Shown: piece by piece, positions 31,301 through 49,300 of the stretch | Layout of the letters: each line of letters begins with the position of its first letter | How positions within the stretch are numbered: position 1 is the first letter of the stretch | NCBI GenBank assembly: GCA_963727445.1 | Contig: CAVSGI010000002.1 | Coordinates: forward strand, 32,001-96,000 | Origin: an uncultured delta proteobacterium | GTDB taxonomy: Bacteria; Myxococcota_A; Polyangia; Polyangiales; B10-G4 | Direction of reading: 5' to 3' | Length of the DNA stretch: 64,000 nucleotides | Program-made: the position numbers

Positions 31301-34300
31301 CGTGGCGCCGATCACGCTGATGAGGGCGGTAGAGGTGGTGCCCAGATTGGCCCCGATCACCCACGCTCCCGCCTCGGTGATGGGGATCAAGCCAGAGGCC
31401 GCAGCGGACAGAGCCAGGGCGAGCGAAGCGCTCGATGACTGCGTGGCAGCGGTGAGCACCAGACCGAAGACCGCGAAGAGCAGGACGCCAGCGACGCCGC
31501 CCGGCGCGAGGGATGCCGGATCGACGCCGGCGGCGACGTCGCCGAACGCCGTCTTCATGAAGGCGAGCCCCAAGAAGAAGAGGCCGAAGCCCGCCACCGC
31601 CTGACCGATGGCGCCGATGCGCCGCGCGCCCCCGAAAGTCGACACGAGGGTCCCGATGCCGATCCCCGGCAGGGCGAAGGAAGCCAGGTCGATCTCGAGC
31701 CCGGTCAGCGCGACGAGCCAGCCGGTGACCGTGGTGCCGACGTTGGCGCCGAACACCACCCAGATGGCCTGGCCGAGGTGGAGCAAGCCCGCGTTGACGA
31801 AGCCGATGGCCGCGATGGTGACGGCGCTCGAGGACTGCACCAGCCCGGTGATCAACGCACCCGACAACAGCGCCCTAAAGCGCGTATCGGTGGCGCGCGC
31901 CAGGATGTTGCGGAGCGCGTCCCCGGCCGCGACCTTCAGCCCCTCGGTCATCAAGTGCATCCCGAGGAGGAAGAGGCCGATCCCGCCGGCGAAGGTTCCG
32001 AGCGTCACCACGATCGAAAGGCGGCCATGTCATGTCACCCGCGGCACACGGGCGAGCTGCGGCTCAACGACGACCGTCGAGACCGGAGTGGCAGATGGCG
32101 CACTTGGCGATGAGCTGGGCGTAGACACGCGCCTTGTCAGCGGGCTGACCCGCGTCGTGCGCCTCCTGGCCGAGCGCTCGGAGCTCCTCGAGGTGCGGGG
32201 TGAGGGCCTCGGCATCCTCCTCCTCGCGGAGGGCCTCCGCCTGCTCCGGCGTCATGGGGTCCTCCATGATCGCTTCGGCACCGCGCTCCCACGCCTCGTG
32301 CGAGGGGGCGGTGAGGCCGAGCCAGAGCTGATCGACGCCCCAGGCGTGGCGGTCCATCTCACCGCGGACGTTGTGCTCGTGAGGCGGCTGCTGCTCCGGA
32401 GGAATGGCCGGGCCGCCCAGCGTGGTGCGGTGGCAGTCCGCGCAGCTCTCGGTGAGCGCGGCGACGGCGTTGGCAGCCGCCTGGATGTCCGCGACCTCGG
32501 CGTAGCTCCCGGCCGAGTTCTGCATCTCGCCGACCCACTGCCGCCAGTCCCACGGCATGTCGTCACCATATTCGGTGGCGGCGATGCGCGCGAGCGGTGC
32601 TCGGACGCCCTCGAGGTCACCGTTGATCACGGCGTCACGGGCCGCGGCGACGTCGGCGAAATGCTCCCGCATGTGCTCCGGCGCGGTTTCGGTGTCCGCC
32701 GCTTGCTCGTCTTCAGCCGGCGGCGGCTCACTCGACTCGGTCTCCGTCGGAGTCTGCGTCCCGCCGCAACCGAGGAAAACGAGCAGGGCTGTCCATGTCA
32801 TGAATCGCACGGCACCTAGGTACACGCTGCACCGACAGACGCAACCCCGAAAATCCGTGGCCTTCAGCGGGCGAAGGGGTGGCAGCTCTGGCAGGTGCTC
32901 GCGTCGGGGAAATGGCCCGTCGCCTTGTCCCGATGGCAGCTCACGCAAACGGAGCGTCGGGGTGGAGCGACCGAGTGACCGCGGTGACAGTCGGGGCAGC
33001 GCTGGTGCTGGGGCACCTGATGCTGAAGCGTCTCGGTGATGTGTTGATGACAGCTGGTGCAGGCGGGCGGGCTCTGGCCCACCGGCTGATGGCAGTTCTC
33101 GCAGGACGCGTGCGCGCCGGGCGCACCGGCGCCCGCGCGCGCTTGCTCCGCATGACACGACGCACAGGTGCCCCACCAGCCGCCCGCGGGGAAGGCGTGG
33201 TGAACCTGATGACACCCGGTGCAATCCCGATGGCGGCCGGTGTGCTCTCGCGACGTCTCTGCCTGATGACATCCGCGGCACGCGGGAACGTGACCCACGT
33301 CGTGCGCCGCGTGGCATCCGGAGCACGGTCCCGCGTGGATGCTGCCGGAAGGCCACGTCGCGTTGGCGTGCGCCACCTCGCCGTGGCAGCTGGCGCAGGC
33401 CGGCGTCTCGTCGAAATGGTGCGGCGTGTGGCAGGACGCGCAGACGCGGTGGGGCGGGGGGCTCTGACGGCTGGTCACCGTCCGCGCTTCCGTGCCGTGG
33501 CACCCGGCGCAGGCGGTGGTGCTCCGGCGCGTCGGATCGCCATGAGGATCGTGGCATGTCTCGCAGTCCTGATGCGGCGCCGGCTGATCCTCGAGCTCGG
33601 TATGGACGCCGGCGTGGCAGCCGTTGCACGCCGTTCGCGGGTTGGGGGCGCCGGCGTGCGCGTCGTGGCAGGCCAGGCACGAGCGATGCGCGTTGGGCGC
33701 GCCAGCGTGATGGATGTTCGAGTGGCACTCGACGCAGACCTCGGGGCCCGGAGGCAGCGAGTGTGGCTCGTGACACTGAAGGCACGCGTCGTGTCCGTTC
33801 ACCCGGGCGATGCCTGCCTCCTGATCCGTGTGGCAGGCGGCACATCCATTGGGATCGGCCCGGAAGACGTGCGGCGTGTGGCAGGTGCCGCAGCGTCCGT
33901 CGTGGGTGAGGCTCTGCGCGTCCACCGCGAGGCCAGCGTCGGAAGGTGACGTGGTGGCCGACGCCCAGAGGCTCTCGCCGCTGCGCCGCCGCTCTCCCGG
34001 CCTGGGCGGACGGTGACACCGGAGACAGCTCACCGCCGGCGCGTCGCGCGGGGGGTGGGCGGTATGACAGGAGGGGCACCCGCGATGTCCCTCGGTGCCG
34101 GCGGCGATGTCAGCGGACAGCACCCCACGGTGGCAATGAACGCAATCCGCCTGCCCCACTGCGCTCTCATGGGGGTTGTGGCAGGTGCGGCAGTCGCCCG
34201 AGTCGTGAACGCTGTCGGCCGGGAGCTCGGCGGTCCAGGGCGCGATCTCGAGGAGCGCACCCGACGGGTGCACCGGCTGCTCGGGGTGCTCCTCGGCGCG

Positions 34301-46300: not shown

Positions 46301-49300
46301 CGTAGGGCGTGCCGCCGACCGTGATCGTGAAGTCCACCTGGATCCGTCGCCCGCTGGTCAGGGTGACGGCGTCGAAGGTGACCTCGGGATAAGCGCTCGC
46401 CGGGTTGGTGAAGGGGTAGTAGTGGCGATCGATGATCGGCGAGACCCCCACGCCCGTGGGGATGTGACAGTCGGTGCAGCGGTCGTCGTCGGGACGGTCG
46501 CCGCCCGGGTGAAGCCGCTGCCAGGCCGCCGGCGGGTCGCCCATTTCGAACCAGATGTCGTCGTGACAGGAGCCGCAGGCCGCGCGGCTCGGGACCGTGT
46601 TCCAGCGGTCGCCGTCCGGTCCGGCGTGGCAGGTGGTGCAGTTGCGGATGTCCTGGGGAAACTCGACGTCCGAGTAGTCGTGCACGCTGCCGCGATAGCC
46701 GACGATCTCATAGGGGTTGCCAGCGACGACGCTCGGCAGATGCGCGCCCCGGTGGATCTTGTGAACCATCGTCTCGAAGTTGATGGTGTTGCCAGTGTCG
46801 GGATCGGCGTATCCCGCCGCGTGACAGGTCGCGCAGAGACGCACGTTCTCGCGCGAGCCGCCGTGCGCCTCGAGCGGCGTGTGACAGTTGTTGCACGCGT
46901 CGTTGGTGACGATGTCGCGGGTCTCGGTCACCGGCATGCCGTCGGGCCGGAAGTTGGGCGCGTCGTTCGCGACGTAGCGGACGCCGTCGTAGGTGCGCGT
47001 GGCGTAGTAGCCGATGGTGTGCGTGCGCGTCGCGTCGTAGTCCGTGGGCAGGACCACGCCGAAGTCGTAGCGGTAGATGCCGTCCGCGTCGTCGACCACG
47101 GTCCACGTGCCGCCGGAGTCGGTCGCGGGTTGGGTGGCGGAGCTCATCCCGTCCTCGCTCATCACCGTGCGTGTGACGTAGTTGACGTAGGGCAGGACGA
47201 CCGGGCCATCGAGCCGCATCTCGGTGGGCAGATAGGCGACCGTGAAGCTCACCGCTACTTCGCCTTCGGTCTGGATCCCCTCTCGGTCGAGGGGCGTTCC
47301 CTCCGCGTCGGTGAATCGGAGCACGGCGTAGGGGATGCGCGTGGTCGCGTCGATCCCGTACTCCATGGTCTCGACTTCGAGCCCCGGACCGGTGACGTAG
47401 GCGTTGGTGCCGTTCGACCCGTCGACGCCATCGACGCCGTTGGTGCCGTCGGTGACCGTGACCATGGTGCCGTCGTCACAGGCGATGGTCTTGGTCCCCA
47501 TCCCATCATCGGTGACGGTGCAGCTGGTCCCATCCATGCCGTCGCGCACGATGGCTTCGGTGCCGTCGCTGCACGAGATGGTGGCGGAGCCGTCCGGGTT
47601 GTTGACCACGGTGCACTCGGTGCCCCCACAGCCGGCGGTGGTGCCGACAGCCATGGCTGCAGCGAAAAGCATCGTGATTCGTGTCGGTGCTCGCATTCCT
47701 CTCCCCTCGGGCAAACGCCCGGCGACAGAGAAAAGCACCGATCCGTGTTCGTCAATGGGCTACGTGCGACCCATCACGTAGTTTCGTCCTCAATACCCCA
47801 TGTCGCTCATGGCCTCGTCGTTCGCCTCGAGCGAAAGAGAGCGGGCGGCAGGAGCGCTCATCGGCTGGCGCGCGGCGCCGGAATGCCCGCGCAATTGTTG
47901 CACTCGCTGCTGCATGCGCTGCCGTTCCGCCCGTGGCGCCCGCTCCATCGCGCCTTCCACGACGTCGGCGGCGAAGTCGAATTGGCGCGCTGCCTCTTCG
48001 GCCCGTCCCTGGTCCAGGGCCACCGCCGCGGCGAGCTGGGCCTCGGCGGCGCGCTGATTGGCGACGAGGGAGGCCACGCGCGGCGCCTCGCTGCCGGCCG
48101 CCGTTCGCGCGTCCGCCACGATCTGATAGTCGAGGTGCGCGGTCTGGACCTGGCGGCCCCGCCCTGGCGCATCGAAGGTCAGGCGCGCGGTGCCGGCGCT
48201 GTGCCGCCCGAGACGCTCGGTGTCGATCTCGGCCCGGAGCAGCACCTCGCGGCGCTGGCCCGCGTGGAGCGCCCCCACGTTGACCCGCACCCGACCGTTT
48301 TCGACGCTGGCGCCGCTCGACTCGACCCCGAGGATGCGCACGCCGGCAGCGGGGACGACCTCGATGATGGTGTTGGTGGCCACGGTGTGGCTCAGGAGCT
48401 CCAGCTCCTGTTCGAGGATGGTCGCCATCTGCGCCGGATGCTCGAGGTGGTACATGCGGCCGGCGCTCCGGACCGCGAGGGCGGCCAGGGTGCGTTCGTC
48501 GTAGTCGAGCCCGACGCCGATCGCCGACACCTGCGCGCCGCTCTCCGTGCCCGCTGCCGCGATGGCGCCGAGGCTCTGGGGATCCGCGGGACCGATGTTC
48601 GCGCGGCCGTCGGAGACGATCACGAGGCGGCGGATCGGATGCGTCGCGGGCGCGGCGGCCAGCCTGTCTTCACCCACGCGCAGACCGTCGAACATGTTGG
48701 TGCCGCCCATGGCGCCCAGCGTCTGCACCTGTTGGATCAGCATGCCGCGGTTCTGCTCGCTCACGGTCGTGGGGGGGCTGATCTCGGACACGCCGTTGTT
48801 GAACGCGTAGATGGAGACGATGTCGCCGGAGCGCAGGCTCTCCACCAGGCTCGCCGCCGCCATCCGGGCGTTCGCGATCTTCTGGCCCTCCATCGAGCCC
48901 GAGGTGTCGATCACGAGCGAGAGGTCCATCGGGGCCCGCCGGGATTCGGTGACGACCTCCGGGGCGTCCACCCAGACGCCGATGTAGGTCTGACCGTCCG
49001 CCCCGATCACGATACGGGTGTTCGCCGGAGCCCCGCCGATCCACGTCCCGTCGGCGCCCACGACCTGCGCGGTCGATCCGTCCTCCACCACCACCCGCAT
49101 CTGCCCCTGATTCGGCTGTGCCTGCGCCGCACCACCCCCACAGCCGGCGATCGCCGCCGCAAAAAGAGCCGAAACCCCAACGAATCGTGCGCGCATGGCC
49201 TTCTCCCTCTCGGTCATGGAGGGGCTAGACGGCTCAGATGCAGAAGGGATCTGCGCGACGTGTCTCGATTCGGTCGCGGCGAGTGGGTCCGGGCGCTATG

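Follow-up and report, generated by a model that had tools for sequence, protein, structure and literature searches.

A candidate porin-cytochrome conduit operon built around an unnamed barrel and a 13-haem lipoprotein in an uncultured member of the Polyangiales

We analysed a 64,000-nucleotide window of the genome of an uncultured member of the Polyangiales (Myxococcota), in which eleven linked minus-strand genes form one operon, running from 47696 to 32864, with 4-bp ATGA or GTGA overlaps at 8 of the 10 gene junctions. The operon is genuine, and family scores together with conserved synteny exclude chance as an explanation of the gene cluster. The survey's finding had the gene order and common strand right, and a recount returned the same CxxCH numbers (10, 8, 3, 10, 12, 29 and 2), but it omitted a haem-free lipoprotein gene and took the second half of a frameshifted nine-haem gene for a 6-haem gene; its totals of 80 CxxCH motifs overall and 75 in the six large proteins become 83 and 78. 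Five additional CX3-4CH sites bring the operon to as many as 88 haem sites. The dihaem cytochrome c'-like lipoprotein gene at the end of the survey's span (32064..32801, minus strand; 2 CxxCH) is present but follows a 62-nt gap, scores weakly and below the cut-off for PF01322, and carries no label in any related locus fetched, so that it may lie outside the operon. A lipobox gives no information on which membrane face a protein reaches.

The first gene (45480..47696) encodes a decahaem lipoprotein of 738 aa; the previously proposed start at 47654 loses the signal peptide, whereas the ATG at 47696 yields an N-terminal lipoprotein signal with a lipobox, recognised by pattern, at Cys23. The protein belongs to the OmcA/MtrC family, with a TIGR03507 score of 379 bits against a cut-off of 209 and a further match to PF22113. 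As the survey had reported, its PDB matches are exclusively MtrF, OmcA, UndA and MtrC chains (12 of 12, E 2.6e-26 to 9e-7), and the top 16 Foldseek hits of its model (pLDDT 79.9) are all OmcA, UndA, MtrC or MtrF (E 5.6e-27 to 1.5e-10), with whole-chain TM-scores to OmcA and MtrC of only 0.33-0.37. In the secondary structure of the model, pentahaem and beta domains alternate, two of each, and the ten CxxCH motifs lie in the former. Domain III contains no CX8C pair, no cysteine outside haem motifs occurs beyond residue 100, and CX8C is present in 2 of 23 homologues. In Shewanella MtrC, such a pair restricts the formation of peroxide under air (PMC9973256); a decahaem without it sits oddly with an oxygen-respiring host.

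Next comes an octahaem lipoprotein of 683 aa with a Gly-Pro-rich stalk (43432..45483; 8 CxxCH and a lipobox). A profile of 11 homologues retrieved a single PDB entry, 6I5B (E 4.5e-12), which is OcwA of Thermincola potens (PMC6703420, excerpt), and the octahaem sulfite reductase MccA/SirA did not appear among NCBIfam or PDB sequence matches. The octahaem thus appears to be a distant relative of this surface reductase: the order of haem motifs is the same, but the match is partial, and the protein has eight haems rather than nine, an extra haem-free N-terminal region and the lipobox of a Gram-negative lipoprotein. Judged by profiles and models, outward terminal reductases are the nearest solved relatives of both candidate surface proteins, the decahaem and the octahaem. 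A second multihaem lipoprotein of the CxxxxCH/CxxCH domain family (38545..40062; 10 CxxCH and 3 CX3-4CH) scored 89 bits against a cut-off of 27 for TIGR01904 and gave no hit in a PDB sequence search.

Between these lies a putative quinol module. It comprises a small cytochrome lipoprotein (42875..43426; 3 CxxCH and 1 CX3CH), an NrfC/DsrO-type 4Fe-4S protein with an uncertain start codon (41890..42894) and an NrfD/DsrP-type integral membrane protein with a predicted quinol site (40652..41893). The small cytochrome is probably tetrahaem, since homologues carry 4 CxxCH in 14 of 18 loci, and would form the periplasmic arm of the module. The 4Fe-4S protein matches PF13247, and the membrane protein exceeds the PF03916 cut-off with 98 bits. 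The arrangement of small multihaem cytochrome, 4Fe-4S protein and NrfD-type protein in a row resembles DsrJOP, DsrO and DsrP being the best NCBIfam hits; unlike in DsrMKJOP, however, both scores fall short (DsrO 186 bits against 200, DsrP 322 against 350), the small cytochrome does not match DsrJ, and no DsrM or DsrK occurs among the operon's genes. We presume a likeness to cytochrome-NrfC-NrfD modules of the CbcSTU type. The adjoining haem-free lipoprotein missed by the survey (40059..40655; 198 aa, lipobox) matched no family, and its homologues in related loci accompany the conduit-linked version of the module. The NrfD-type module as such is not conduit-specific: it is carried by 69 of 201 genomes of the order, and 10 of 18 fetched loci have the module but no conduit gene.

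The conserved core of these loci consists of two genes, an outer-membrane beta-barrel without a named family (37171..38548) and a cytochrome lipoprotein of 352 aa (36116..37174), which has a lipobox and, besides the 12 CxxCH motifs after which it had been called a 12-haem protein, an overlooked CX3CH that makes 13 haem sites. The barrel gene lies immediately upstream of a 12-14-haem gene in 65 of 66 loci, and in 53 of 54 when loci were chosen by the cytochrome alone. Although the barrel gene is frame-broken in this assembly, it is intact in the genus-mate, as the survey had stated, and aligning 9 homologues raised the genus-mate model from the low-confidence pLDDT of 58 reported before to 74.5, with 22 long strands, in line with the earlier claim of more than 20 antiparallel strands. 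The search for relatives, which returned 689 representatives, identified no named family and no PDB relative, and none of 97 homologues exceeded a Pfam or NCBIfam cut-off. Structure matches of the model are generic barrel folds, the best with Z 16.0 (rmsd 5.6, 302 aligned), and MtrB (6r2q_B) ranks 31st among unrelated barrels (Z 12.7, rmsd 6.9, 357 aligned).

Co-folding of the genus-mate barrel with its 13-haem partner scored 0.75, against 0.01 for the best control. Of 157 solved complexes, 116 came up to the mark applied, as did 2 of 215 mismatched pairs; this calibration is only rough, as own alignments were used and likeness to the solved MtrAB may help the complex to pass. At least 83% of contacts agreed between runs, the partner's pLDDT was at least 68, and by our reading of the models the contacts touch all 22 strands, often at alternate residues. 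Going by site positions in these haem-free models, haems 6-13 are placed inside the barrel. The 13-haem lipoprotein is therefore predicted to be an MtrA-like plug; MtrA is absent among the 32 PDB hits of its profile.

Downstream follow a nine-haem cytochrome with a signal peptide and a C-terminal membrane helix (34816..36119) and a 29-haem cytochrome of 651 aa with an N-terminal hydrophobic helix (32864..34819), at 22 aa per haem a predicted periplasmic wire; homologues of the latter with 20-34 haems come after the 13-haem gene in most related loci. Beside the conduit, quinol-reactive modules occur in three unrelated forms: the NrfCD type (this window and L015, L019, L021, L082, L123, L124 and L127), a NapC/NirT type recognized by motif in 30 of 66 loci (all five checked exceed the PF03264 cut-off), and an ActA/Qrc-like type with NrfD (L036 and L042). 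The quinol slot is thus interchangeable between loci.

Within the order, the 13-haem gene was found in 25 of 48 genomes and the MtrC family in 10, with both no more than 15 kb apart in 7 of these 10, similar to the frequencies in the survey (84 and 45 of 200, and 28 of 45 within 15 kb). Its description of the system as common in the order holds for the two-gene core but not for the whole operon. Among 301 Myxococcota genomes sampled, 65 carry a close form of the core. Only 16 of these 65 have MtrC no more than 15 kb away from it, a figure lowered by fragmented assemblies, and the genus-mate (86% complete) gave no MtrC hit; MtrC is hence accessory to the conduit. The label of aerobic predator was an assumption, all 39 named loci being metagenome-assembled or uncultured records. 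The present genome does encode three haem-copper oxidase loci, of which two are aa3/CtaD-like, as well as an alternative-complex-III-like cluster and cytochrome c maturation and secretin genes.

We consider it probable that the operon encodes a porin-cytochrome conduit sending respiratory electrons outward. The sidedness of the lipoproteins, the order of periplasmic steps, direction, acceptor and expression are what we infer in the following scheme. The NrfD-type protein would oxidise menaquinol, and the NrfC Fe-S protein and then the tetrahaem would relay the electrons to two membrane-tethered cytochromes, those with 9 and 29 haems. These would bridge the periplasm and feed the 13-haem lipoprotein, its first five haems periplasmic and its last eight threaded in the 22-strand barrel. 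Outside, at least one of the CxxxxCH-type 10-13-haem protein, the MtrC-family decahaem and the OcwA-like octahaem would take the electrons, and the surface lipoproteins could deliver them to Fe(III) or Mn oxides, humic quinones or other cells at low oxygen. A porin-cytochrome route is strengthened by the invariant barrel-cytochrome linkage, the co-folded model and the interchangeable quinol modules, and the outward conduit as a whole is backed further by the outward-reductase relatives and the cytochrome c maturation and secretin genes. It is weakened by the frame-broken barrel and nine-haem genes, the MtrC missing from the genus-mate hits, the non-specific NrfD module, the lack of CX8C, the low TM-scores, the rough co-folding calibration and the ambiguity of lipoboxes. 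The quinol-to-surface route proposed in the survey is thus supported, but the role of MtrC, the order-wide commonness and the aerobic-predator label were overstated.

Two of the operon's eleven genes are broken, and the barrel break, near 37690, lies outside any homopolymer, as might be expected if the operon were decaying in this strain and the conduit dead. This we regard as highly improbable, because ordinary genes of the assembly break at a similar rate (22 breaks across 123 of them, or 1.23 per 10 kb, which predicts about 1.8 per 15 kb), a secretin and a subunit I of a haem-copper oxidase are fragmented as well, and identity to the genus-mate stays at 66-71% on either side of the barrel break. 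The nine-haem break falls inside a Gly-Thr repeat near 35715, leaving three motifs in another frame, while all six relatives with this gene (picked by barrel) have nine motifs in a single ORF. Both breaks match the assembly background. An intact conduit might also run in reverse, taking up electrons from Fe(II), reduced humics or sulfide minerals into the quinone pool and on to oxygen via the oxidases. Proteins of the NrfD and NapC types are able to run both ways, the genome has the oxidases and the alternative-complex-III-like cluster, and the absent CX8C would matter less if no flavin were reduced in air. We nevertheless hold uptake to be unlikely, as the known uptake systems described in an excerpt of bioRxiv 10.1101/2022.03.26.485925 are without an MtrC analogue, whereas this operon has MtrC-family and OcwA-like proteins.

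Another function for some 88 haems would be that of an envelope capacitor, holding electrons during brief anoxia and discharging them later without growth on minerals, an idea published for such proteins (PMC7399161, excerpt). The very dense packing of haems (29 in 651 aa), the variation of the long wire among relatives from 20 to 34 haems and a host able to respire oxygen would all suit storage; we find it improbable all the same, for the invariant core consists of the barrel-cytochrome pair, and a barrel in the outer membrane is not needed for storage. We would give equally little credence to a division of the operon into two units, in which the quinol module and the octahaem form a surface or periplasmic reductase of a soluble or toxic anion (nitrite, hydroxylamine or a sulfur oxyanion). 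The octahaem gene directly precedes the tetrahaem-NrfC-NrfD genes, an order that we take to be an Nrf/Mcc-type reductase layout, and OcwA, its only PDB profile relative, reduces nitrite and hydroxylamine (PMC6703420 and PMC7096707, excerpts). Against this, the module stays with the barrel genes where the run has no octahaem (L021, L082, L123 and L127), all operon genes are translationally coupled here, and the scores for tetrathionate-reductase and NrfA-type families are either far under the cut-off or absent.

Read as an outward conduit, the operon resembles MtrCAB of Shewanella (PDB 6R2Q) with CymA in its decahaem of the MtrC/OmcA family, in the cytochrome predicted to sit within a barrel and, in many related loci, in a NapC/CymA-family quinol dehydrogenase. 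It differs in having 22 strands instead of 26, 13 haems instead of 10, no CX8C and an optional MtrC. Nor does it contain a member of the MtrA family (TIGR03508 scores in the operon reach at most 51.6, the cut-off being 192) or the MtrB/PioB family (no PF11854 match in the genome, which is 86% complete), as the survey had found. Porin-cytochrome systems have already been published, also from Myxococcota (Anaeromyxobacter) and Ignavibacterium, and the form described here is a variant of that kind. In the Pcc clusters OmbB-OmaB-OmcB, Ext, Anaeromyxobacter Adeh_3391/3392 and Ignavibacterium IALB_1839/1838/1837, an 18-22-strand porin adjoins, and is always linked to, a 5-14-haem cytochrome (Shi 2014, PMC4245776). 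The 22-strand barrel, its adjacent 13-haem cytochrome and the further cytochromes around them agree with this; unlike there, the cytochrome paired with the barrel is a lipoprotein and has an atypical CX3CH site, none of which was found in periplasmic Pcc cytochromes (PMC4245776), and an MtrC-family protein, a 20-34-haem wire and a dedicated quinol module are added, OmbB/OmaB, ExtB/ExtE and Adeh_3391/3392 having been compared by description rather than sequence. PCC3 and PCC4 likewise join a porin to very haem-dense, wire-like cytochromes with over 20 haems and to a link in the inner membrane, but PCC3 has porins of as many as 42 strands and a 5-helix membrane protein with two WX3HX13H motifs (He 2017, PMC5566968), in contrast to the 22 strands and NrfD-family protein here.

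In an Ignavibacteriaceae locus (L064), the genes for a porin and a 14-haem cytochrome of 404 aa are followed by that for a lipoprotein whose motifs are atypical. The porin and the cytochrome of this locus are distantly homologous to those in the operon (hhalign 90.6%, E 1.3e-6, and 28% identity, respectively), and its cytochrome has 400-aa Ignavibacterium relatives. The layout fits the published I. album cluster, where IALB_1839/1838 encode a porin and a 14-haem, 400-aa cytochrome (PMC4245776), the I. album proteins being compared by description only.

Our literature search found no account of this Myxococcota lineage of conduit. Speculatively, and with more doubt than belief, the barrel and the 13-haem lipoprotein could be a separate porin-cytochrome family, with no sequence relationship to either MtrAB or OmbB-OmaB, which would serve as the main outer-membrane conduit in about a fifth of Myxococcota, dock a borrowed MtrC, swap quinol modules, and let oxygen-respiring, possibly predatory myxobacteria respire in anoxic flocs, sediments and prey biofilms via minerals, humics or neighbouring cells. 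To our knowledge, Myxococcota besides Anaeromyxobacter are seldom regarded as electroactive, and MtrB-based screens would overlook this barrel, for which neither Pfam nor NCBIfam has a family. Should the conduit function as modelled, abundant myxobacteria of sludge, soil and sediment would take part in iron and humic redox cycling, and the system would offer a natural example of an MtrC-family protein supplied by a non-MtrAB conduit and of a smaller barrel enclosing eight haems.

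Between window positions 47696 and 32064, six-frame translation and GC3 tracking resolved twelve minus-strand genes in the source genome (9.47 Mb, 86% complete). The first eleven meet at ten junctions, comprising eight 4-bp overlaps (ATGA or GTGA), one 5-nt gap and one 20-nt overlap; they form a single operon whose genes are translationally coupled. Gene twelve, encoding a dihaem lipoprotein, starts after a 62-nt gap and has no labelled counterpart in any related locus that we fetched. The genes with haem sites carry 10, 8, 3, 10, 12, 9, 29 and 2 CxxCH motifs, 83 in all. The survey had counted 80, missing three that sit in another frame upstream of its 6-haem ORF, which is thereby a 9-haem gene; its count of 12 CxxCH in the cytochrome encoded next to the barrel was accurate but incomplete, since a CX3CH in this protein aligns with a canonical CxxCH of its paralogues and brings the number of sites to 13. 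This CX3CH is one of five CX3-4CH sites, with which the operon could bind up to 88 haems. The genome as a whole encodes 36 ORFs with at least three CxxCH, with 281 motifs altogether. Window 47790-49968 holds a vWA-domain gene, just upstream of the operon on the same strand, and a divergent gene that looks ClpP-like by its sequence.

The core of the operon consists of a gene for a predicted outer-membrane beta-barrel (37171..38548, minus strand) and the 13-haem lipoprotein gene (36116..37174, minus strand). After removal of three duplicate loci and of three others (L065, L067 and L069) encoding a shorter, 7-haem relative with no barrel match, 66 loci remained, and in 65 of them a barrel gene was found directly upstream of the 12-14-haem gene; the single exception sits where a contig ends. 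Twelve of these loci had been chosen via the barrel, so that the unbiased linkage is 53/54. The barrel halves matched no Pfam or NCBIfam family, of 150 homologues listed, 97 were tested and none scored above an NCBIfam cut-off, two profiles matched no PDB chain, and the ESM Atlas clusters and cluster look-ups returned only "hypothetical protein". Fold searches retrieved nothing beyond generic outer-membrane barrels, with MtrB at rank 31, and PF11854 had no match in this 86% complete genome. Despite the lack of a named family, the barrel family is large, with 689 representatives at 50% identity. The model of the whole barrel from the genus-mate (pLDDT 74.5) has 22 long strands by manual count; the loops on one side are long, and those strands are joined by short turns on the opposite side. 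The close form of the cytochrome carries a lipobox; all six distant forms that we saw, one of them a second copy in the source genome, lack it. This copy is part of a distant barrel and 13-haem pair (L113:4873-8365; contig C27, about 200870-204360) that lacks both a lipobox and other cytochromes nearby, and its barrel apparently occupies more than one frame.

Co-folding of residues 68-480 of the genus-mate barrel with the genus-mate 13-haem protein, using a 49-row alignment for each, gave a score of 0.75, compared to 0.01 for the best control. Of 157 solved complexes, 116 attain this score, as do 2 of 215 mismatched pairs; these counts apply only roughly here, since we supplied our own alignments. 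Contact agreement among runs was at least 83%, and partner pLDDT was at least 68. The contacts span cytochrome residues 137-336, that is, haems 6-13, and because they touch each of the 22 strands, frequently at alternate residues, these haems are predicted to reside in the barrel lumen. The c7-like N-terminus would then stay in the periplasm, on the side of the short turns. Co-folding thus supports, rather than shows, binding between the two proteins; the models are haem-free, and the score may stem from likeness to solved MtrAB complexes.

Among the candidate surface cytochromes, the first decahaem (45480..47696, minus strand) is a true member of the OmcA/MtrC family, as the survey had proposed, with a TIGR03507 score of 379 bits against a cut-off of 209, 12 of 12 PDB sequence matches, and the top 16 Foldseek matches to its model (pLDDT 79.9) all within this family. 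Whole-chain TM-scores are low (0.33-0.37), with domains I-II alone reaching up to 0.68 by target length. The CX8C pair, which in Shewanella limits peroxide formation in air (PMC9973256), is absent from the operon decahaem and present in 2 of 23 homologues. The octahaem (43432..45483, minus strand) has a sole PDB relative by profile, 6I5B (E 4.5e-12), the surface reductase OcwA (PMC6703420). The conduit can dispense with MtrC, given that none was found in the genus-mate. The second multihaem lipoprotein contains TIGR01904 domains, and most loci with the core encode it too. Elsewhere in the phylum, in other families (L075, L077, L078, L084 and L085), a CxxxxCH-type lipoprotein encoded upstream of the barrel is enlarged to 16-34 CxxCH, and a long wire is missing after the 13-haem gene.

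On the quinol side, the NrfC-type, NrfD-type and small cytochrome genes scored best against DsrO and DsrP, both below cut-offs. In 30 of the 66 loci, a NapC-type motif marks one of the encoded membrane cytochromes, with all five proteins checked above the PF03264 cut-off and no overlap with the NrfCD-type loci, and an ActA/Qrc-like set with NrfD occurs in two loci, one of which was scanned. The quinol slot is therefore swappable, accommodating three module types, and the occurrence of three routes to the quinone pool beside one conduit argues for a respiratory link. Mutual exclusion of the NapC-type and NrfD-type modules holds within the fetched loci and was rejected at the level of whole genomes. 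The link should not be over-read, however: the NrfD-type gene is present in 69 of 201 genomes of the order, and of 18 loci retrieved around this gene, 10 contain no conduit gene; three (L123, L124 and L127) preserve the window's gene order from MtrC through the 9-haem gene, with no octahaem in the run. Many genomes of the order have a stand-alone tetrahaem-NrfC-NrfD module (L117-L122, L125, L126, L128, L129 and L132), which occurs independently of the conduit and usually near a divergent 4-haem ORF. NapC/NirT-family proteins usually contain four CxxCH; those encoded beside related conduits have only three (L033:7892-8611, L030:7607-8359, L034:3883-4557, L029:12527-13441 and L074:13528-14262).

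The genes, their families and their linkage are evident from these comparisons, and the operon most probably encodes a conduit for electron export. In this scheme, electrons would pass from quinol through NrfD and NrfC to the tetrahaem cytochrome, then along membrane-tethered 9- and 29-haem wires to the 13-haem plug in the barrel, and finally via surface lipoproteins to an outside acceptor; we infer the sidedness, the order of steps, the direction and the acceptor. The same chain of cytochromes might instead serve electron uptake, which we consider unlikely. A reductase of soluble anions built on the octahaem seems improbable to us, as does, to a similar extent, a haem capacitor. Decay of the operon in this strain appears the most doubtful of these alternatives, and it is here that two frame breaks have to be considered.

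The barrel gene contains one extra base near 37690 relative to the genus-mate copy, and the 9-haem gene is shifted in frame near 35715, within a Gly-Thr repeat linker composed of GGAACG units (window 35690-35800). For the background, we took 187 genus-mate ORFs from 20 segments, each 20 kb long; 137 were mapped, and 123 satisfied the identity and length filters. These ordinary genes contain 22 frame breaks, a coding-sequence rate of 1.23 per 10 kb. Since about 1.8 breaks are expected per 15 kb and 2 were observed in the operon, both are likely assembly errors. Programmed frameshifting was ruled out, the genes of relatives being open in one frame. The one DNA run aligned to the region (share 0.07) yielded short pieces of relatives, none shown to bridge the break at 37690 or 35715. 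Any claim of a broken gene in this assembly should be weighed against roughly 1.2 breaks per 10 kb; elsewhere, at window 977-3978, two overlapping ORFs may, judging by their motifs, represent one UvrA-type gene split by a frame break.

Of 301 genomes of the phylum, the source genome included, 127 contained a match to the 13-haem profile with an E-value of at most 1e-25, 65 carried the close class of this gene (E 1e-67 or better), and 64 encoded a protein above the TIGR03507 cut-off; both the cytochrome and the TIGR03507 protein were found in 43, and in 16 the two lay no more than 15 kb apart on one contig. By our own counts, of 48 further genomes from the order to which the source genome belongs, 25 have the 13-haem gene, 10 the MtrC family, and 7 both within 15 kb. 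These counts carry no statistical test, as kin genomes are not independent. The 39 named loci among the matches listed belong to Polyangiaceae, Labilithrix, Sandaracinaceae, Kofleriaceae, unclassified Myxococcales or Deltaproteobacteria, one Ignavibacteriaceae and one Coatesbacteria; all 39 are metagenome-assembled or uncultured records, and Anaeromyxobacter is absent from them. The taxa agree with the order named by the survey, but an aerobic, predatory life does not follow from such records.

The porin-cytochrome cluster (Pcc) was described by Shi et al. (2014) as an 18-22-strand porin adjoining a 5-14-haem cytochrome, and the examples listed there include two-gene clusters of Anaeromyxobacter (12 haems, 338-344 aa) and Ignavibacterium album (14 haems, 400 aa) (PMC4245776). 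The Ignavibacteriaceae locus L064 shares the layout of the latter. Its cytochrome belongs to a family that occurs widely in Ignavibacteria, and its porin and the operon barrel are distantly homologous, although the first comparison was weak (E 0.009) and significance was attained only with 49 rows. Given this layout and this homology, the core and one of the clusters previously predicted to be Pcc are probably distant relatives; clusters of Ignavibacteria have also been termed OmbB-like (Arbour et al., PMC7399161). The operon fits the Pcc definition in its gene organization and would work in the manner of MtrCAB or Pcc, but is not a member of MtrCAB. Membership of DsrMKJOP was likewise rejected, with DsrO and DsrP below cut-offs, as was that of PCC3, which, like PCC4, differs from this operon (PMC5566968). 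In Desulfobacterota, MtrC is described together with MtrAB, and MtrB has 26 strands (PMC12133095). Olmsted et al. report that novel multihaem clusters are most abundant in Myxococcota, together with MtrC and ExtABC, and their set may already include the present families (bioRxiv 10.1101/2022.03.26.485925). No paper on this operon or barrel family emerged from our literature search, which included Myxococcota-directed queries and had most subscription journals outside its scope. The operon is real and its class, that of porin-cytochrome clusters, is already known. The novelty lies in how its parts are combined across many Myxococcota: a barrel of a family that has no name is paired with a 13-haem lipoprotein as its predicted plug, MtrC is optional and comes without MtrAB, a wire of 20-34 haems is added, and the quinol module can be swapped.

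The source genome additionally encodes three haem-copper oxidase loci, cytochrome c maturation genes, secretins, an alternative-complex-III-like cluster, formate dehydrogenase and a Phs/Psr-like molybdoenzyme; a search for NrfA gave only a weak match (E 2e-4), and one for NosZ gave none. Contig C10 carries more multihaem clusters (L115:5339-12283 and L116:5754-9374), with ORFs of 10, 23 and 11 haems and a 26-haem ORF, in which no NCBIfam family scored above its cut-off. On contig C20 (L109:2386-7208), a sulfur dioxygenase-like gene and an NrfC/NrfD fusion precede, in this order, a Phs/Psr-like molybdoenzyme gene, all scoring below cut-offs; the region is a candidate locus for sulfur-oxyanion respiration.
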